Shown piece after piece: positions 2,456 to 45,080 of a DNA stretch of 45,080 nucleotides. The stretch is taken from positions 1 to 45,080 of IMG/VR virus record IMGVR_UViG_3300045988_006100; one strand, 5' to 3'. This stretch comes from a virus. Lineage: Duplodnaviria > Heunggongvirae > Uroviricota > Caudoviricetes. A model generated the notes under the pieces. The model did not search any database, was not told the origin of the DNA, and was given only the letters and a program-made list of their open reading frames with translations. The first letter of the stretch is position 1; each line of letters begins with the position of its first letter. The position numbers and the translations under genes were made by a program.

Positions 2456-2658
2456 CACTCCACCCCTCCCACATGTGTAACTGACCCACAGTTCGCGCAC
2501 TCGACGTAATCCGGGAACTGGTCCTTGTATTTCTGTAACTCGGCTTCAACTTCCAACAGCTTTAGGTCAAGATTCTGGTAGTCCTCAAACTTAACCCACT
2601 TCCCGTGGCGGTCAATGAAATGGTTGTCGGACCCATACTTAGAATATCTCTGTACCAT
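2455..2658 (-). CDS. hypothetical protein with C-terminal CxxC
   Basis: ATG at 2658 preceded by AGGAGA; TAATG-type junction with upstream gene; ORF open to 2730. Confidence 0.4.
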   Translation of the reverse strand: MVQRYSKYGSDNHFIDRHGKWVKFEDYQNLDLKLLEVEAELQKYKDQFPDYVECANCGSVTHVGGVE

Positions 2659-2659
2659 G

Positions 2660-2863
2660 TTATTTCTCCTGTTTACCAAGTCGCTTAGGTGAGCAGATAG
2701 CGCGTACCTCTGAATCGATGGGCTTGTCACCCTGAAACAGAAAGTGCGCGTTCTCAGCGGCGCGTGCCGCTGACTGGCACGCCTCCATCGAGTAAAACGT
2801 TTCTGATGCCGCTAGTTGCATCTGGCCCGCCGACAATACCCAGATAAATAAGATGCTGGTCAT
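2660..2863 (-). CDS. hypothetical small secreted/membrane protein
   Basis: 67 aa with N-terminal hydrophobic signal-like segment MTSILFIWVLSAGQ. Confidence 0.4.
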   Translation of the reverse strand: MTSILFIWVLSAGQMQLAASETFYSMEACQSAARAAENAHFLFQGDKPIDSEVRAICSPKRLGKQEK

Positions 2864-3294
2864 TTCAGTTTAGCCCCGCAATCAAGACACTTTTTAGTAA
2901 AACCCGGCGCAAAGCCTTTGCGCAAACCGACGGTATTAGCGTGTTGGCAATCGCTCAATTCCGATTCTTGCTTACCGCATTTAGCGCAAATGAAGTAGTC
3001 CCCTTTTTCATCTAGCACCCAATCATGCTCGCATTCCTGGGTATCCTCTTTACAGCAACCGGATTGCTCCTGTTTGCGGATAAGTTTGTACGCTTCCGCG
3101 TCACCCGTAGCCCGAACCAGCGCCAGATGCAAATCCTTAATCTGCGACGAAGCATCACGTAACTGGTTTTTAAGTGACTGCACCTCATGCGCCAGGTCTT
3201 CGCACTGCTGCTTGTGCGGGTGGCTATTTACGTGCTGCCGTAACTGGTCAATCAGGTACTCGAATACTTCGTTTTTGCTACTCACCATCCCCAT
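2860..3294 (-). CDS. hypothetical zinc-finger protein
   Basis: 144 aa; Cys clusters CEHDW...CAKCG...CLDCGAKLK; ATGA overlap with downstream gene. Confidence 0.5.
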   Translation of the reverse strand: MGMVSSKNEVFEYLIDQLRQHVNSHPHKQQCEDLAHEVQSLKNQLRDASSQIKDLHLALVRATGDAEAYKLIRKQEQSGCCKEDTQECEHDWVLDEKGDYFICAKCGKQESELSDCQHANTVGLRKGFAPGFTKKCLDCGAKLK

Positions 3295-3303
3295 CCCCTT
3301 CCT

Positions 3304-3363
3304 CGTCTATTAATTCAAATTTACCGTTTGAGTGTTGGATAGCTTCTTGCCCGCAATGGTCGC
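3304..3363. repeat. 60-bp perfect inverted repeat, copy 1 (partner 8381..8440)
   Basis: Exact reverse-complement identity to 8381..8440; here non-coding or a start-less gene fragment. Confidence 0.9.
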
Positions 3364-3388
3364 TTCGATTGTTGCGTTTGGTGAAATA

Positions 3389-3430
3389 GAACAAAAATGA
3401 GAAAAATGATACGCTGCTGTGTAGCAGCGT
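3389..3430 (-). terminator. putative rho-independent terminator
   Basis: Hairpin ACGCTGCT-GTGT-AGCAGCGT followed (on - strand) by a T-rich tract; downstream of gene 3465..3653. Confidence 0.5.
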
Positions 3431-3464
3431 AAGTCACAAAGCCAAATAGTAAACTATTGGCCTG

Positions 3465-3653
3465 TTACACCGGCGCCGGTGGCTCAGGTAAGGGCATCCA
3501 GTGGGAGATATCGCCGTGGTATAAACTCTTCGCTGGTCCCCAGTAGCCATCCGAATTAACACGCATAACCTCACAGCCAACAAAACAATCAGTTACAAGA
3601 ACGTATTCATAAGGCTCCGGCATCCGCTCACTACACTTAATCCACTCACCCAT
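3465..3653 (-). CDS. hypothetical protein
   Basis: 62-aa ORF in leftward block. Confidence 0.35.
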   Translation of the reverse strand: MGEWIKCSERMPEPYEYVLVTDCFVGCEVMRVNSDGYWGPAKSLYHGDISHWMPLPEPPAPV

Positions 3654-3796
3654 AAATCACCTCGTATTCATCACATACTGCACACCAGCTTTCCACGCCC
3701 GCCACGCAAGACGCGTCTTAACGTTCAGGTACTCTTTCTTTGAACCCTTGTTAACCGGCAGACCCTCGACGACGGCCCACCGTTCGAATGCTTCTC

Positions 3797-4003
3797 TCAT
3801 AGCTCTACTCCGTGGTGCTTTAGGAAACTATTTAACTTGTACTCCCGGTACTGCGCTACCGCCTTAGCGTGGGCCAAATTCCACGACTTCCATGGGGTGT
3901 ACTTCGCCTTTTCCCAACATTCAACGCCAAACTCGGCGGCGCGCAGCCCACCAACAAGACGGCGTAAGCGGAATTCATTATATGGACTCATATCAACCTC
4001 CAC
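3797..4003 (-). CDS. hypothetical protein
   Basis: 68-aa ORF in leftward block. Confidence 0.35.
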   Translation of the reverse strand: MEVDMSPYNEFRLRRLVGGLRAAEFGVECWEKAKYTPWKSWNLAHAKAVAQYREYKLNSFLKHHGVEL

Positions 4004-4073
4004 CCCACATAAACAGCGCTGACAATTAAAATATTATCCACGGCAACCTCCCTCAGAGTCGTCGGCACGAGCC

Positions 4074-4292
4074 TCATGATTCGATGCCGTTGTGAATGAT
4101 GCGGAAACAACATTGAAGAAAACTAACGGTTAAAGTCTCGCCCACAGTGTCCTCTAAATCCCATTCATCACCGTCTTCATCTAAAACGTATCGACGGCCG
4201 TCGTAATATACTCCTGACGAATATTTGTTACCTTTCACAAACCAATCCTGCACATCCTGGCGGGATTCAATACAAATTAATTCTTCCATCAC
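4074..4292 (-). CDS. hypothetical acidic protein
   Basis: 72-aa ORF, first gene of leftward block. Confidence 0.4.
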   Translation of the reverse strand: MMEELICIESRQDVQDWFVKGNKYSSGVYYDGRRYVLDEDGDEWDLEDTVGETLTVSFLQCCFRIIHNGIES

Positions 4293-4460
4293 TTCACCCC
4301 TTTGAATTTAAAATTGTTGCCGATGAGTTCTAAATTATCGCGTGAGGCGAACCCAGTTTTCTTTCTTACCAGACCCCATACGTCAACCAGATTATCCTCC
4401 GCGTTTAGTTTTAACCAACTGACCCTTCTTAAGCATAACCCTCACTCCTCTGTCTCGTTT

Positions 4461-4500
4461 CGATAAGTGAATAGTATCCTATTATGTTGGGGTGTGCAAG
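4461..4500. promoter_or_regulatory. conserved promoter/operator element (family member A), possibly bidirectional
   Basis: GTGAATAGT-N4-CTATTAT core followed by GGGGTGTGCAAG; reverse complement reads TTGCAC-N17-TACTAT; sits at the divergence point of the left and right arms. Confidence 0.45.
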
Positions 4501-4677
4501 AGAATAGTTACGTTGCCGTTGTGATTCTTTCGTTTCTTAAAAGAGTACGCAACGCAGTGGGTGGGCGTTAGCCCACCCCAGCGGAGTGAAGTACTCTCTA
4601 CCTTGCTCACGGCAACTATAGAAACTTTTAATTATCCGTGACTTGGATATTTAGGCGGGATTAACAATAGACTTTGA

Positions 4678-4808
4678 CCCTTCCGAAAGCGTCAGCGGAA
4701 CTACACTCAAGTGCCTAATGGCACGCGTTGCGTTCCCTGCCGCTCCGCGGTCGCTTGCGATATCTCACAAGCTCAGTGAAGCTTAGCATATTTTCAAGTA
4801 AAAGTCAA
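4678..4808 (+). repeat. conserved ~130-bp non-coding element, copy 1 (copy 2 at 37458..37587)
   Basis: About 80% identity to 37458..37587, with identical blocks CCCTTCCGAA, GCGTCAGCG, AACTACACTCA, CCGCGGTCGCTTG, TCACAAGCTCAG. Confidence 0.7.
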
Positions 4809-4913
4809 TACCAGTAGCATCTTTTGTATTTTAGTAACTTTGCGTGGTGTTTTGGTTGCTTTTACAAAGTTACCGCCTTATACTTCGATACATATTACAC
4901 AGGAGAGCGCGAG

Positions 4914-5084
4914 ATGACTATCAATGAAGTTGCAGAATTAATCGGCGTCACCCGCCAGACAATCAATAACTGGATTAAGAGTGGAAAGTTTCCTGATTGC
5001 AGCGTTAAAGTAATGGGGCGCCGTTTACCAGGAACATTTGACCGTAATAAAGTTGAAGCGTGGATTAAGGAGAACGTGAAATGA
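4914..5084 (+). CDS. AlpA/excisionase-like HTH DNA-binding protein
   Basis: ATG at 4914 with AGGAGA SD; segment INEVAELIGVTRQTINNWIKSGKFP is a typical HTH. Confidence 0.55.
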   Translation: MTINEVAELIGVTRQTINNWIKSGKFPDCSVKVMGRRLPGTFDRNKVEAWIKENVK

Positions 5085-5371
5085 AAGGTGTAATTTTCCA
5101 CGATAAAGAAAATGACAGTGCTTATATGGTCTATTTAGTGCAAGGTGAGTATGCGTTGTGTTTTAACGTTTCCTGTAAACTGGACTCATATTTGCCGTTT
5201 TGCGTTACAGAAGAATTGCAGTCGATTAGTCTAAGAAGACTCAGCACAATGTCGGCTTCCATCGATGTCTCCGACCACCTATCCTACGTTTATCAGTATT
5301 TCGGTGATGAGATTGTCGCAGATTATTATCGTAAGTACGCACATTTGATGGAATGTCTGGCTAAAAGATAA
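5081..5371 (+). CDS. hypothetical protein
   Basis: 96-aa ORF, ATGA overlap with upstream gene. Confidence 0.45.
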   Translation: MKGVIFHDKENDSAYMVYLVQGEYALCFNVSCKLDSYLPFCVTEELQSISLRRLSTMSASIDVSDHLSYVYQYFGDEIVADYYRKYAHLMECLAKR

Positions 5372-5429
5372 AAGAAAGCCCCGACGCGGTGAACGCCGAG
5401 GCCAAATTATTTGCTGAAGGAAATACAAC

Positions 5430-7697
5430 ATGTCCGATGTAATTTTATCCTACTCGTGGTCACGTCGCAACGCGCGGGCAGAGAAAAAGGATATAAACGT
5501 CAGAACCACACACACGGCAACACTGGATGACCTGAAAGAGTTAATCCAGCCGCTCGATGCTGTTCGTGACGGGATCAACCCGAAGACAGCGCCAGGCTAT
5601 ATTACTGCCGCGTGCGACTCTGCGCACAGCACTGTAAAAGACCCGGAAACCGGTGACTTTAAGCAAGCGCGTAAAGGCTTCTTCTATCGCTGTGACGCGT
5701 CTGTGAGCAAATCGTCGCTGGCGTATCTGGACTTCGACAGTGCAACACCGGAAGAGTACCAGGAAGCGGTGCGCCTGGTTAATCGCAGCCGCCGGGCGAT
5801 GTGTCTCTACACCACGGCATCACATACCGATGAGTCACCGCGCTTTCGCGTCGTCATGCCGCTGAGCCGCCCGGTTGAAGGCGGCGACATCATCCGTGTT
5901 CGTCATGGCTTGCTGGAGCACTTCTTCGAAGGCATGGGCGCTGACCGCAGCGGGTTCACTCTGTCGCAGCCGATGTACCTGCCGCCGGTCGGCGCTACCG
6001 TTATCTGGTCGCGCCGCAACGACCTGATCGACCCGAACGAGTTACTGGAAGGCATCCCAGCCGTTGACGTTAGCAGCGCATCGGATTACCAGATACCGGA
6101 AGAACTGCGCACCGCGTTTACAGACGCGTTTGAAGCACTGGCGTTTGAGTACGGCGGCGTCATGACGCCGCGCGGCCTTAAGATGCCAGCCACACCGGAA
6201 CATGCCGAAAACTACAGCGACCCGACACCGCGCCCGGACGACTTCCTGCTGTGCTTCCCGCGCGAGGGGTATGAAGCGCCAAACGTAACCATGATTCACG
6301 ACACAGACATTACGGCGACAGAAGGCCTGTCACCGAAAGAGGTGTGGAAGTACGCGTGCGATGCGACCGGGCTGCCGTTCAGTGAAGTCGCAGAGGCCAT
6401 CGGTTGGGGGGCGCGTGAATCTGTCTCATGCAGCCTCGACGACCTGGAAGACGACGAGGACTCAGAGGAGGACGAGTTACCGGAGCCGGTAAAGGCTGAT
6501 TTCGTCGTTGAGGGGTACATGCCGTCGGATTGTATCTGGGGTATCGTCGGAGAATCGGGCACGTACAAATCATTCTATACGCTGGGGATGATGTACCTGA
6601 GCGCCGCCGGATACCGGTTTGCAGGGGCTGACACCCAGCGTTGTCACCATTTCTATATCGACGGCGAGGGTGGGGCAGCCACACGTACACGTATTGATGC
6701 GCTCGCGGCTAAATACGGCGAGGAATGTAAAGATTATGTACATGTCATCGATATGGGCGAAGTCGGCAAACTTAAAAGCCTGATTAAGTTAATGCGCGAA
6801 ACTGCTGGCGACGAGCCAATTGGCATGGTTGCGTTCGACACCCTTAACCAGACCCTGGCACTGACGATTGATAAGTTCGACGAGAACAGTTCATCAACAG
6901 CAATCGGCATGGGTAAAGTTATCGCCATTCTGAAAGAAGTACGCGATGCAACTAAAGCCGCAGTAGGCGTTGTCCACCATACGCCGAAGGGTGGAAAGAA
7001 AGCACGCGGCAGTGGAGCGCTGTATGCGGGTGTTGACGTGGAACTGACAATCGAACGTGCAACCGACCGTCAGATAAACGTATATCACTCGAAATTCAAG
7101 CACGGGCCTCAGCAGAAGACGGTTGGCATGGTGCTGGAGTCGGTACAGTTCCGTGAAGCGCCGCCGCCTAAAGAATACCGAGCGGTTGAGTTCCTGGGTA
7201 GCACAGAGGAATACGGCACAATCGTAAACCTGGACCTGCCTGAACCACACAAGGCGCTTGTGTTGATGCCGTGGGGTTTCGAGCCGTTCAAAACTGACGA
7301 GGAGAAAGAGCGGGAAGAAGGGTTGACGAAAGAAGGTAAAGAAAATGTACGTAAAACCGTAGAGAACGCCGTCAACAGTTCGGAGGCCACGATACTCGCG
7401 GCGTTTGAACTGGCGGAAGGAACCTACAACGGCAACGAAGGCATCACAGTCGCCGCGGCGAATAAGCTCGCACAGTCAGACCCCAACGCAAAGGCGTTTA
7501 ACTCCAAAGAAGCCATAGAACGCGGGAAGATTAAGAAAATGGTTGAGGCCGGGTATCTTGTTCCGGGTACTGACGAAAACAATCAGATAATCCCAGGTCG
7601 TTACAGGCTGAACACCAGAATAACTGATAACAAGATTCCAAAGACAATATACGAACCGAATGAAATGTTGACAGTGACAGAGGAGGATTTGGAATGA
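5430..7697 (+). CDS. putative primase-helicase (AEP-like N-terminal domain plus RecA/DnaB-like ATPase)
   Basis: 755 aa; N-terminal YLDFDS...ASH...RFRVV pattern (primase-like); C-terminal Walker A GESGTYKS, Walker B VAFDTL, VVHHTPKGG. Confidence 0.6.
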   Translation: MSDVILSYSWSRRNARAEKKDINVRTTHTATLDDLKELIQPLDAVRDGINPKTAPGYITAACDSAHSTVKDPETGDFKQARKGFFYRCDASVSKSSLAYLDFDSATPEEYQEAVRLVNRSRRAMCLYTTASHTDESPRFRVVMPLSRPVEGGDIIRVRHGLLEHFFEGMGADRSGFTLSQPMYLPPVGATVIWSRRNDLIDPNELLEGIPAVDVSSASDYQIPEELRTAFTDAFEALAFEYGGVMTPRGLKMPATPEHAENYSDPTPRPDDFLLCFPREGYEAPNVTMIHDTDITATEGLSPKEVWKYACDATGLPFSEVAEAIGWGARESVSCSLDDLEDDEDSEEDELPEPVKADFVVEGYMPSDCIWGIVGESGTYKSFYTLGMMYLSAAGYRFAGADTQRCHHFYIDGEGGAATRTRIDALAAKYGEECKDYVHVIDMGEVGKLKSLIKLMRETAGDEPIGMVAFDTLNQTLALTIDKFDENSSSTAIGMGKVIAILKEVRDATKAAVGVVHHTPKGGKKARGSGALYAGVDVELTIERATDRQINVYHSKFKHGPQQKTVGMVLESVQFREAPPPKEYRAVEFLGSTEEYGTIVNLDLPEPHKALVLMPWGFEPFKTDEEKEREEGLTKEGKENVRKTVENAVNSSEATILAAFELAEGTYNGNEGITVAAANKLAQSDPNAKAFNSKEAIERGKIKKMVEAGYLVPGTDENNQIIPGRYRLNTRITDNKIPKTIYEPNEMLTVTEEDLE

Positions 7698-7891
7698 GCG
7701 GTAAATTTAAAGAAGTAAGCGACGAACTGAAAGGTAATAAATACACCAACCACAGAGGCGAAGTAGTAGAAGTTCTTAACGTAGTTCCTTATGGGCGCGG
7801 GTATCATGTTGTGTTCAGTTACACAGAGGCTTACAGCGTGTACTGCGGGTTAGGTAAGTTTCGCAAAAGATACCCGATAAAGGTGCAATAA
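7694..7891 (+). CDS. hypothetical protein
   Basis: 65 aa; ATGA overlap and GAGGAGG SD embedded in upstream gene end. Confidence 0.45.
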   Translation: MSGKFKEVSDELKGNKYTNHRGEVVEVLNVVPYGRGYHVVFSYTEAYSVYCGLGKFRKRYPIKVQ

Positions 7892-7916
7892 AAAGAAAGG
7901 GGCGTCAAGCCCCTTC
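7885..7916 (-). terminator. putative rho-independent terminator
   Basis: Hairpin GGGGC-GTCAA-GCCCC with T-rich tail on - strand; between convergent genes 7694..7891 and 7905..8120. Confidence 0.5.
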
Positions 7917-8120
7917 ACCGAACGCCAGCCACTTAGCGTCTACTTCCAGCACTTCCGCCAGTTTAAACAACGTTGCCGGGCGGACGTCCTGAGTTACACC
8001 GAGAGCCAGCTGGTTAATTGCGCCCTGGGAGACACCGGCCAGGACAGCCAGACGGCGCTGGGAGATGCCGAGTTCTTTACGGCGTTGCTCTACACGGATG
8101 CCTAGTTCGGATGGTTGCAT
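7905..8120 (-). CDS. XRE-family (Cro/CI-type) HTH transcriptional regulator
   Basis: 71 aa; ELGISQRRLAVLAGVSQGAINQL is a classic HTH_XRE segment; AAGGAG SD; sole leftward gene inside the rightward block. Confidence 0.7.
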   Translation of the reverse strand: MQPSELGIRVEQRRKELGISQRRLAVLAGVSQGAINQLALGVTQDVRPATLFKLAEVLEVDAKWLAFGEGA

Positions 8121-8140
8121 GTCAATTACTCCTTAGTCAG

Positions 8141-8170
8141 TTGATGTGTGAATAGTACCATATTAATTAT
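8141..8170. promoter_or_regulatory. operator/promoter-like element (family member G) upstream of XRE gene
   Basis: GTGAATAGTACCATATTA core; lies between XRE start and rightward promoter D. Confidence 0.4.
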
Positions 8171-8184
8171 TTTAGAAAAGCCCA

Positions 8185-8213
8185 TTGACAAGTGAATAGT
8201 TCGCTATTATAGT
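8185..8213 (+). promoter_or_regulatory. sigma70-like promoter (family member D)
   Basis: TTGACA-17 nt-TATAGT with internal GAATAG/CTATT inverted repeat; 29 nt upstream of gene 8242. Confidence 0.6.
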
Positions 8214-8241
8214 TAGCCCATACCAAACGAGAGGTGAAGAT

Positions 8242-8469
8242 ATGAACATAATCACTGGAGCTATAACTAAATGTTTCCGGGTAATTTTCGGTGAACCGCA
8301 AGAAGTATGCACTAACCATAAATTTGTACTTTCTTGCGTAGTCGGGGACGAGTTTGACGGATTCGATAAACTGGTGGTTTGCGACCATTGCGGGCAAGAA
8401 GCTATCCAACACTCAAACGGTAAATTTGAATTAATAGACGATAGCCTTACAGAAGGCGACGGCGAGTAA
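8242..8469 (+). CDS. hypothetical Cys-rich protein
   Basis: 75 aa; good SD GAGAGGTGA; its 3' end contains inverted-repeat copy 2. Confidence 0.5.
   Translation: MNIITGAITKCFRVIFGEPQEVCTNHKFVLSCVVGDEFDGFDKLVVCDHCGQEAIQHSNGKFELIDDSLTEGDGE
8381..8440. repeat. 60-bp perfect inverted repeat, copy 2 (partner 3304..3363)
   Basis: Exact reverse-complement identity to 3304..3363; here encodes the C-terminal ...DHCGQEAIQHSNGKFELID of gene 8242..8469. Confidence 0.9.
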
Positions 8470-8491
8470 CCTAAATAAACAGGAGAAACAA

Positions 8492-8992
8492 ATGTTAGAA
8501 CAATTCTTAAAATTACTGGAACGTTTCGTAGTTGCACATGAACTGATTGCTGCGAACAGTGCGAAACAGTCAGCACAAGTTGCAGCGCCGTTAGAAGTAG
8601 AGACGGTAGTGTATACCAAAGAAGCGGTAGCTGAGTGCGAAAAAGAAGCAACAAAAGAAATCCCTGTTGAAGGTGAAGACATCGTTGACGCTAAACCAGC
8701 AGAAGAAGAGAAGCCGAAACGCAAGCCGCGTAAAGCTAAAGTAGAGGAGCCGACTCCAGAACCAGAAGAAGAGAAAGAAGAGGTCGATTACCAGTCTCTT
8801 CGTGACCAGATTCAGGCTATCGACGATGCAATTAACGAAGGTCCTAGCGATGCTGCGTGCGACGATTCCGATGAACTGCTGGAGGAGTTCACCGGTAAGA
8901 AAATGAAGATTGCCGCGATTAAAGACGAAGACCTGGCTGAATACCTGAAACGCCTGACGGCGATTAAGAACAAGTATTTCGAAGAAGAATAA
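8492..8992 (+). CDS. hypothetical highly acidic protein
   Basis: 166 aa, strongly E/D-rich with a lysine-rich patch; AGGAGA SD. Confidence 0.5.
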   Translation: MLEQFLKLLERFVVAHELIAANSAKQSAQVAAPLEVETVVYTKEAVAECEKEATKEIPVEGEDIVDAKPAEEEKPKRKPRKAKVEEPTPEPEEEKEEVDYQSLRDQIQAIDDAINEGPSDAACDDSDELLEEFTGKKMKIAAIKDEDLAEYLKRLTAIKNKYFEEE

Positions 8993-9289
8993 TTTATCTG
9001 GCGGCCTCCGGGCCGCTTTAACAGAGGGTCGTAATATGATTTACCAACTCTACCGAGGTATTGACTGACGGGATAACACAGAGGCGTTGTGGCTGTTGCG
9101 TGCGCCGTCCGGCGCGCACCAGATGGAAGAGATGGCCTACCTCGGCAAAGTACCGAAGCCGAAAGATATAGGCCGTCACCTGTCGCAGATTAAGCGCACG
9201 ACATTCGTTAAAAGTGACTTTTATGTCTTCGAGTCGATGCATTGTGACCACAAGACACGACATTTAATTGACCAGTGGGAGAACAGGGT

Positions 9290-9637
9290 ATGACCGATAA
9301 ATGGTGGCTTAATCTGCGTAGTGGCGACAAGGTTTACACAGTCGGCGACCGCAGAAAGAGCAGCGGCGTAGCTACTGTGTTACAAAACGGCAAAAAGTAC
9401 ATTCACATTGTGCATGAAGCTCGTGCGCTCCGCGTGAATAAATCGTCTGGCAGGCTTGAGGATTACCCGAAAACATTAATATATAAAAGTGAAAAGCATC
9501 ACATGGACGCTGTTGACGTAAGACGTCAGTTCGCAGGAATGTTGCAACAGTTAAGCGACTTACATCGCGATGATTCTTTCATTCCTACAGAAGAACAGTT
9601 ACAGGCATTAAACTTGTATTTGGAGAGTTTACGATGA
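9290..9637 (+). CDS. hypothetical protein
   Basis: ATG at 9290 (ORF open from 9275); ATGA overlap with downstream nuclease gene. Confidence 0.4.
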   Translation: MTDKWWLNLRSGDKVYTVGDRRKSSGVATVLQNGKKYIHIVHEARALRVNKSSGRLEDYPKTLIYKSEKHHMDAVDVRRQFAGMLQQLSDLHRDDSFIPTEEQLQALNLYLESLR

Positions 9638-34064: not shown

Positions 34065-34244
34065 TTATTCCTCTGACTTACGGCGACGTCGCTTAGTACC
34101 ACCACCGTTGTTGTGCGCTTCTTCGTTGTCCGGTTGTGTTGCAACCAGTTCTTCCGCTTCTACCGCACCGCGAACAGGCATCACCTGACCGTCAACAACA
34201 TCAACGTGGGTGTACTTTTCGCGGATTACATAATTATCTGCCAT
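34065..34244 (-). CDS. hypothetical small protein (59 aa)
   Basis: ATG with AAGGAAAGG SD; below ORF-track cutoff; basic C-terminus KRRRRK. Confidence 0.3.
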   Translation of the reverse strand: MADNYVIREKYTHVDVVDGQVMPVRGAVEAEELVATQPDNEEAHNNGGGTKRRRRKSEE

Positions 34245-34280
34245 GACCTTTCCTTATTACGGCCCCGAAGGGCCGTTGTA

Positions 34281-34631
34281 TTAAGACACAGTTGCTACAG
34301 TGCTGCTGGAGATAATATTACCATACACATCGTGAACAACCACTTTATACGTACCGGAATCGGTAGTAGCGAGCGAAGTTTTCTCGTAGGTGGCGGCGGT
34401 AGCGCCTGGGATAGCGTTGTTATCTTTGTACCACTGGTATGTGTACGGGGCCAGACCGCCAGTTACGGCTACGGTAAGAGTCATCGTCTGCCCCGTAGAC
34501 TTGGTAGTGGTAGCGGCAAGTGCGGTAGAAAAAGATGCGGGCGAGATATTCGCCATATCGATTTCAACCTGACCATCGGCAGGAGAATCATCAGAAACAC
34601 CAGTAATACGACGTTTGATTACATCAACCAT
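34281..34631 (-). CDS. Ig-like domain protein (possible capsid decoration)
   Basis: YTYQWYKDNNAIPGATAATYEK...SGTYKVVVHDVYGN matches Ig-like strand pattern. Confidence 0.5.
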   Translation of the reverse strand: MVDVIKRRITGVSDDSPADGQVEIDMANISPASFSTALAATTTKSTGQTMTLTVAVTGGLAPYTYQWYKDNNAIPGATAATYEKTSLATTDSGTYKVVVHDVYGNIISSSTVATVS

Positions 34632-44772: not shown

Positions 44773-45052
44773 AGTCGTACACCATCCAGTTATCGAACAG
44801 CGGGATAGATACCGCGGGGCCGTCGAACGCTAATTCTTCTTCGGTAGCGTAGTAACTTAGTGTCTGCGAACCTTCCTCGTCAAGGAACACTCCTGCGTAT
44901 GCGCTGGGTTCCTGCTTCATAACGCCGAGGAGTATACGGAACGCCTCCAGCTGAAACTCACCGTTAATCGACAGTTGCCCTCCTAACGTCTGTTTCTCCG
45001 ACTCAAGCACCAGAATACGGCGCTCGAGAGATGCGATTGTGATTTTAGGCAT
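44765..45052 (-). CDS. hypothetical protein
   Basis: ATG at 45052 with AAAGGTGA SD (ORF open to GTG 45061); start lies inside the terminal repeat. Confidence 0.45.
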   Translation of the reverse strand: MPKITIASLERRILVLESEKQTLGGQLSINGEFQLEAFRILLGVMKQEPSAYAGVFLDEEGSQTLSYYATEEELAFDGPAVSIPLFDNWMVYDYD

Positions 45053-45080
45053 TGGTGTCACCTTTGTTCAGGTTGAAGCG
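44940..45080. repeat. terminal redundancy, right copy (identical to 1..141)
   Basis: 141 bp identical to window start. Confidence 0.9.

Follow-up and report, generated by a model that had tools for sequence, protein, structure and literature searches.

How does a phage genome come to carry, 5 kb apart and in opposite orientation, two perfectly matching stretches of coding sequence, of which only one lies in an intact gene? The question is raised by the 45,080-nt stretch of DNA analyzed here (the window), which is a complete, circularly assembled Kagunavirus genome (ENA ERZ27289368, contig k141_75067). Kagunaviruses belong to the Guernseyvirinae and are virulent siphoviruses of E. coli. The nearest records are BEU35 and BEU33, with 97.7% identity over the alignable parts of positions 2500-9500, followed by phiEc4 and K-02. 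An initial annotation of the window had described a perfect inverted repeat of 60 bp. The repeat is real, but it is 61 nt long: by a repeat search and by direct string comparison, positions 3303-3363 and 8381-8441 are 100% complementary, with 5017 nt between them, and identity breaks off sharply beyond either end of the 61 nt. When the genome was shuffled 20 times at the mononucleotide level, exact inverted repeats reached at most 14-20 nt, compared with 61 nt in the real genome, which excludes a chance origin of the repeat.

The two arms differ in their genetic context. The right arm (8381..8441, + strand) is located within an intact early gene (8242-8469), where, as had been proposed, it encodes the C-terminal part, ...DHCGQEAIQHSNGKFELID, of a 75-aa ORF. 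The left arm (3303..3363, - strand) contains the same codons (...DHCGQEAIQHSNGKFELID) and has the sequence type of the right copy. The frame around it, said to be open on the - strand without an ATG, corresponds to ORF 3278-3394, which ends in ...ELIDEEGDGDGE and whose sole start codon is a TTG at 3394, within the T-tract of a terminator. This ORF covers the ATG at 3294 and thus does overlap the start of the gene at 2860..3294. The sequences flanking the arms had been described as similar but diverged. This holds on the outer side only, where the tails EEGDGDGE and DSLTEGDGE have the common ending GDGE; on the inner side there is zero similarity because the boundary there is a deletion junction. 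The YSPSPS codons listed as shared between the flanks are simply the opposite-strand reading of these two tails.

The comparison with related phages that the initial annotation had suggested revealed a full-length paralogue at the left-arm site in BEU35, in K1ind1 and in a metagenomic Kagunavirus (ERZ27241771 k141_151227). In BEU35, the left paralogue encodes 70 aa (MNVVARCFHAIFGAPQEVCTNHKFVLSCVVGDEFDGFDKLIVCDHCGQEAIQHSNGKFELINEEGDGDGE), is inverted, and occupies exactly the site of the left arm in the window, flanked by the same terminator, spacer and 144-aa gene. Upstream of it are the sequence GAGAGGAGAGACAGAAGATG, a ribosome-binding site and a predicted promoter-like element, TTGCAC-17-TACTAT, that matches 7 of 12 consensus positions and contains a GAATAG-N4-CTATTC palindrome. 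The full-length copy of K1ind1 at the left site is its only copy, and among the 57 phage records that have the family, only BEU33 and BEU35 carry it in two places. The left site of phiEc4, Shashou and GCA_053661095 holds unrelated small ORFs, and we therefore regard it as a variable cassette site of kagunaviruses. The left cassette of Shashou (MK931440.1) is bordered by near-identical ribosome-binding-site sequences, CGAGAGGAGAGGCAGAATATG upstream and CGAGAGGAGAGACAGAAGATG downstream, and it is possible that this repeated sequence serves as a homology handle for cassette exchange.

Alignment with BEU35 located the inner boundary of the left arm precisely. BEU35 contains two direct repeats 234 bp apart, one in the spacer (GCGACTATTGCGGG) and one within the gene at the CDHCG codons (GTGACCATTGCGGG), and removal of the 234 bp between them yields the window sequence, save five substitutions inside the arm. 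A single hybrid copy of the repeat is left in the window, GCGACCATTGCGGG. The junction itself, GCGAC-C-ATTGCGGG (3350..3363, - strand), is the spacer repeat GCGACTATTGCGGG fused to the in-gene repeat G(T/C)GACCATTGCGGG. It follows that a few bases at the inner end of the 61-nt identity stem from the spacer repeat, and these match the right copy (TTTGCGACC...) by microhomology only. The deleted 234 bp spans codons 1-46 of the left copy along with the ribosome-binding site and promoter-like element in front of them, and the only start remaining for the remnant frame is the TTG in the terminator T-tract. Microhomology of 13/14 positions was equalled in 16 of 2000 spacer shuffles and is modestly unusual. 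We also considered whether the spacer repeat might be an older footprint of the small gene, and rejected this idea since the similarity is significant for the spacer of the BEU lineage only and not for those of other kagunaviruses. The phage encodes a gp2.5-like ssDNA-binding/annealing protein and a PD-(D/E)XK exonuclease. In T7, an annealing protein and exonuclease of this kind drive deletions between short direct repeats. We infer that the 61-nt arm persists only because the deletion ended at the CDHCG microhomology.

A junction of this kind in a metagenome contig could in principle be a chimera made by the assembler, the more so as the repeat breaks SPAdes and Logan contigs. However, the 61-nt repeat is shorter than the MEGAHIT k of 141, and the same left-arm junction recurs in three assemblies, namely the MEGAHIT contig that constitutes the window, scaffold_293 of ERZ28624694, which came from another pipeline, and the k = 31 Logan contig SRR2938205_6776. 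The last of these is 100% identical to window positions 3334-8410 and ends after 30 nt of each arm, which is where a k = 31 contig should stop. In addition, NODE_45 and NODE_189 of the SPAdes assembly ERZ1031911 are 100% identical to the window on either side of the junction. The contigs break where k = 55 and k = 31 predict, and we give an artefact next to no credence. All of these assemblies, including the scaffold and the SPAdes and Logan contigs, probably derive from one sample. An exact-pattern search for the deletion junction gave 0 matches in IMG/VR or the metagenome collection; it was protein look-ups that led to the contigs with the junction. The SPAdes break at window 3357/3359 was examined as a sign of population heterogeneity, but graph structure at k = 55 together with overlap trimming explains it better. 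As a separate observation, the ends of the window, 1-141 and 44940-45080, are identical over 141 nt. They are not terminal repeats of the phage, as SPAdes NODE_45 (ERZ1031911) crosses the ends with a single 141-nt copy; they are the k-mer overlap (k = 141) of a circular MEGAHIT contig.

The deletion explains where the left arm stops, and the five substitutions point to a second process. The cores of the two paralogues share about 88% identity, whereas their 5′ ends and tails are non-homologous. Compared with the window's left arm, the left copy of BEU35 shows six differences, one of them in the junction, and at all six the window has the right-copy base. The left remnant is accordingly right-type at the five marker sites (8406, 8427, 8431, 8436 and 8437 in right-copy coordinates), and no base of the left arm departs from the right copy of the window or from those of BEU35 and BEU33. 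The situation is reversed in the 27 nt past the arm (the 25-nt tail plus two bases), which are identical to the left copy of BEU35. The remnant is a chimera of a right-type core and a left-type tail, and the switch between the two lies no more than 4 nt from the point where paralogue homology stops. Exchange has also left a trace in the other direction. The right copy carries a left-type patch at 8310..8316 (+ strand), with C, T and C at 8310, 8313 and 8316; at these positions the right copies of BEU35, BEU33 and SRR29904518 have T, A and A, and C, T and C are the left-copy states of the clade. Over 8381-8441, the right copy of the window remains right-type, as do the right copies of its relatives, so the donor was unchanged. 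Because the patches are non-reciprocal wherever this can be judged, we regard the exchange as gene conversion rather than crossover. Mosaic alleles occur elsewhere as well: the allele of fEg-Eco06 is left-type in its 5′ part and right-type in its tail, and that of Golestan includes a patch of left type.

The relative order of the two events can be approached through the Logan contig SRR29904518_2368, the closest relative with a full-length left copy, whose flanks are 99.1-99.9% identical to those of the window. It carries the right-type base at the one informative site that is visible before the contig breaks in the repeat. As a full-length left copy was already right-type there, it is very likely, on the strength of this single informative site, that conversion preceded the deletion.

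Two other origins of the exact identity were weighed against this evidence. In the first, the lineage never had a full-length left copy, and 61 nt copied from the right paralogue were newly inserted ahead of the 144-aa gene. The identity of the arm to the right copy and its abrupt inner boundary would both fit such a partial duplication. However, the tail is left-type and equals that of the full-length left copy of BEU35, the inner boundary falls on a direct repeat, exactly where a deletion in a BEU35-like ancestor would leave it, and all three of the closest relatives have left-copy sequence at the site; we hold this origin to be highly improbable. The second accepts the deletion unchanged and differs only in the donor, with a right-type allele from a co-infecting Kagunavirus or Kayfunavirus replacing the left core by inter-phage recombination. 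Mosaic alleles do occur across phages, the small gene shares >90% protein identity with its counterpart in the T7-like Kayfunavirus, and the same 61 nt are also found in the right copies of BEU35, BEU33 and Golestan, so that the donor is not uniquely identifiable. Even so, an exact donor resides 5 kb away in the right copy, and the reverse patch at 8310-8316 is exactly the left allele of the window's own clade, which favors exchange within the genome. An outside donor is therefore unlikely, although less so than a new duplication.

Overall, we favor, with a probability of about 85%, the reading that the left arm is a pseudogene remnant of a second, inverted paralogue that underwent conversion and then the 234-bp deletion. 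The initial annotation had offered recent gene conversion or a recombination junction as alternatives, and both hold, the former in the right-type arm joined to a left-type tail and the latter in the 234-bp deletion at a 14-nt imperfect repeat. In the putative history, a BEU35-like ancestor would have carried two paralogues, one heading each of two diverging gene blocks and each behind its own promoter-like element. Conversion would then have made the left 3′ core equal to the right copy up to the end of homology, and in the other direction the right copy would have gained a short left-type patch. In a second step, the deletion would have occurred between 14-nt imperfect direct repeats, GCGACTATTGCGGG in the post-terminator spacer and GyGACCATTGCGGG in the CDHCG codons, by replication slippage or single-strand annealing. 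The left copy would thereby have lost its promoter-like element, its ribosome-binding site and its first 46 codons, and only the 3′ core (the 61-nt arm) and the 25-nt tail would have survived. What the left arm records is ordinary gene decay. The locus offers a reconstructed example of how small accessory genes may turn over in virulent phages, through duplication into a cassette site, conversion and decay of the redundant copy.

Decay of the left copy appears to have taken several routes. Within the two-copy clade, the left copy is intact in BEU35, carries the 234-bp deletion in the window, lacks a 170-bp interior segment in BEU33 and is frameshifted in SRR29904518, where the lesion is a -1 frameshift in a G-run. 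Three different lesions across four sister genomes suggest that the copy was inactivated independently in the window, BEU33 and SRR29904518, and repeated loss fits redundancy of, or counter-selection against, a second copy. In BEU33 (OM632667.1), the 170-bp interior missing from the left paralogue is found at 34181-34351, inside the 3′ end of the helicase-primase gene and in the same orientation. The insertion is at the equivalent of window 7620/7621 and gives the helicase-primase a premature stop about 25 codons early. Neither of the rearrangement junctions of BEU33 is present in IMG/VR, and this relocation, in a record flagged UNVERIFIED, may be a misassembly or a genuine cut-and-paste event.

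The initial annotation had also suggested that the pair of arms could invert the 5-kb segment between them, an early and replication block. The leftward small genes of the segment include one with DUF551 (3465-3653), and besides a divergent control region near 4455-4830 the segment encodes an HTH_17 protein, the helicase-primase (5430-7697) and, on the - strand, an XRE-type HTH protein (7905-8120). The 75-aa gene contributes its promoters and its 5′ two-thirds, which lie on the inner side of the right arm and would also be carried along. Recombination between the 61-bp arms would flip 3364-8380 and give two isomers, that is, a switch that reallocates early promoters between the diverging gene blocks with no need of a dedicated recombinase. 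After a flip, the left site would receive the strong promoters of the right copy along with its 5′ two-thirds, forming a full-length hybrid gene in front of the 144-aa gene, and a truncated copy would be left on the right. If this occurred, inversion would restore the promoter that the deletion removed before the 144-aa gene.

Several features are compatible with such a flip. Either orientation retains one intact gene, the markers document exchange between the copies, and among the gene products of the phage are an annealing protein, an exonuclease, a Holliday-junction resolvase and endonuclease VII. A perfect repeat of 61 bp is long enough for RecA-dependent or phage-mediated recombination. 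However, we found the segment in one orientation only. A synthetic inversion-junction query was covered to at least 80% in 0 of 215 matching phage records, and the reciprocal junction had no match in IMG/VR. The MEGAHIT contig and SPAdes NODE_189, which runs through the right arm, are both in the window's orientation. All relatives are colinear with the window, including BEU35, in which the repeat is longer though imperfect, and the non-reciprocal patches argue for conversion rather than crossover. No invertase gene was found either: the annotation of Bas73 lists no invertase or integrase, and in tblastx comparisons Bas73 and BEU35 account for all of the window apart from 4681-4912 and 5104-5366. 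Likewise, no integrase was reported for fBC-Eco01 (PMC9825357). A rare homologous inversion is possible, but we consider a homology-driven invertible segment very unlikely as an account of this locus. Since the search for a recombinase and for alternative isomers came up empty, the feature does not belong to the site-specific invertible-segment family. It resembles the G segment of Mu with Gin, the C segment of P1 with Cin, the Hin system of Salmonella and the R64 shufflon in that its inverted repeats lie within coding sequence and an inversion would swap gene 3′ ends. Unlike these systems, it has no site-specific recombinase, recombination sites, enhancer or observed isomer, and one of its two "genes" is a promoterless fragment.

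The remnant model has closer parallels. For the early region of T7, Studier and colleagues in 1979 and Pierce and Masker reportedly described deletions with short direct repeats at their ends. There, too, recombination or slippage between direct repeats of about 5-20 nt removes non-essential early genes, and the phage has a gp2.5-type annealing protein and an exonuclease. The present case differs in being a natural variant of a siphovirus (Kagunavirus), in having an imperfect repeat (13/14) of which one copy is intergenic, and in that its mechanism is a proposed one. The exchange between the copies resembles gene conversion between paralogues (concerted evolution), with short non-reciprocal patches in both directions and perfect identity within diverged sequence. 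However, the tracts here are very short (≥7 nt and ≥32 nt), one of the partners subsequently became truncated, and intragenomic and inter-phage donors look alike. Finally, as with morons and mosaic cassettes at terminator-promoter boundaries, the left site follows a conserved terminator and a promoter-like motif, and the small ORFs in it vary. In contrast to such cassettes, that of the window has a paralogue at a second locus of its own genome, and it shows decay instead of exchange.

Part of the left paralogue appears to have been kept for another reason. The left-type acidic tail (3278..3302, - strand) encodes EEGDGDGE and the stop codon, equals the tail of the BEU35 left copy and contains a purine-rich, Shine-Dalgarno-like stretch, GAGGAAGGGG. 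The tail sequence, GAGGAAGGGGATGGGGATGGTGAGTAG, includes not only this stretch but also the start region (ATG/ATG/GTG) of the 144-aa gene downstream (2860..3294, - strand; phrog_6094, annotated as function unknown), the start of which is overlapped by the remnant. In relatives, the homologous gene starts at the counterpart of 3288 or 3285, and in K1ind1 the annotated start of the 144-aa homologue likewise overlaps the end of the left paralogue. BEU33 has lost most of the paralogue, yet GAGGGAAGGGGATGGGGATGG is kept. The 25-nt tail was thus probably retained for translation of the 144-aa gene, as its ribosome-binding site and start. For annotation, this means that ORF 3278-3394 should not be called a gene and that its conserved part is the start region of the 144-aa gene.

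The deletion also altered the predicted transcriptional signals upstream of the 144-aa gene. On the - strand, the order is the stop codon of the DUF551 gene (3465..3653, - strand; Pfam PF04448, E = 8.7e-15), which closes the leftward unit that precedes the remnant, followed by a terminator hairpin, the spacer, the arm, the 25-nt tail and the 144-aa gene. The hairpin is an intrinsic terminator (3410..3431, - strand) with a 9-pair stem and a T-tract, and the annotation of Shashou also lists it as a terminator. The deletion has brought it next to the remnant on the upstream side; the interval between the two contains no promoter-like element, and the phage of the window lacks one of the promoter-like motifs found genus-wide. 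No sigma-70-like sites were found on the - strand from 3400 to 800. Given the terminator in front and the lack of such a site, we infer that read-through or unrecognized promoters must serve the 144-aa gene and probably also the leftward genes that follow it. A second hairpin (3438-3462, GGCCAATAGTTTACTATTTGGC on the - strand) is located between the DUF551 stop codon and the terminator; it contains a perfect AATAG-N4-CTATT, and no gene starts there.

This palindrome is frequent in the genome. AATAG-N4-CTATT occurs 13 times with at most one mismatch, compared with 1.0 expected, and it is found at window positions 4470, 8151, 8195, 11071, 14764, 28116 and 37670, and also at 3445. Most copies lie between the -35 and -10 of promoter-like elements that head gene blocks. 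Two such elements, with the genus-wide motif, are located at 8141..8214 (+ strand), directly 5′ of the right copy, where TTGACA-17-TATAGT gives 11/12 promoter matches. The palindrome also matches the motif tgAATAGTa-ccTATTat-T, which was found by PHIRE in fBC-Eco01 and attributed by the authors to a phage RNA polymerase (PMC9825357). These phages do not encode an RNA polymerase, and the motif looks more like an operator for an XRE or Cro-like regulator.

The intact right paralogue (8242..8469, + strand; 75 aa) belongs to phrog_32657, whose profile it matches over residues 1-75 with E = 1.5e-53; the left copy of BEU35 matches with E = 6.6e-41. The protein has conserved CxxH...CxxC residues and an acidic tail, and C23, H26, C47, C50 and the GDxE end are invariant in six sequences. 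No Pfam family matched the 75-aa protein, and the PHROG is annotated as function unknown. The AlphaFold2 model was poor (pLDDT 59), and a Foldseek search of this low-confidence model against the PDB gave nothing below E = 0.5. One source names a member LysW, which would make it a zinc-ribbon protein, with a fold that has four metal ligands; this name is unsupported.

The right copy shares 90-93% protein identity with an early-region gene of Kayfunavirus (T7-like) phages, in which the homologue is placed between an Ocr-family gene and the RNA polymerase gene. This level of identity between siphoviruses and T7-like podoviruses indicates recent horizontal transfer of the small gene between Kagunavirus and Kayfunavirus. 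Because identity exceeds 90% between the two groups and ocr adjoins the gene in the T7-like phages, we propose the small cysteine-rich acidic proteins of phrog_32657 as candidates for a host-takeover or anti-defence function. LM33_P1 (LT594300.1; 1121-1624 and 1837-2064) has, in front of the small gene, a gene with the annotation "protein kinase", the homologue of which has an ocr domain. In a Kayfunavirus-like contig (GCA_022432785.1, DAGTXW010000087.1; 938-1327), an Ocr-family gene (PF08684) is fused to the last 23 residues of the small gene. Compared with LM33_P1, this fusion corresponds to a 547-bp deletion with a 7-nt overlap at the junction, a second microhomology deletion whose endpoint lies within about 20 nt of that in the window.
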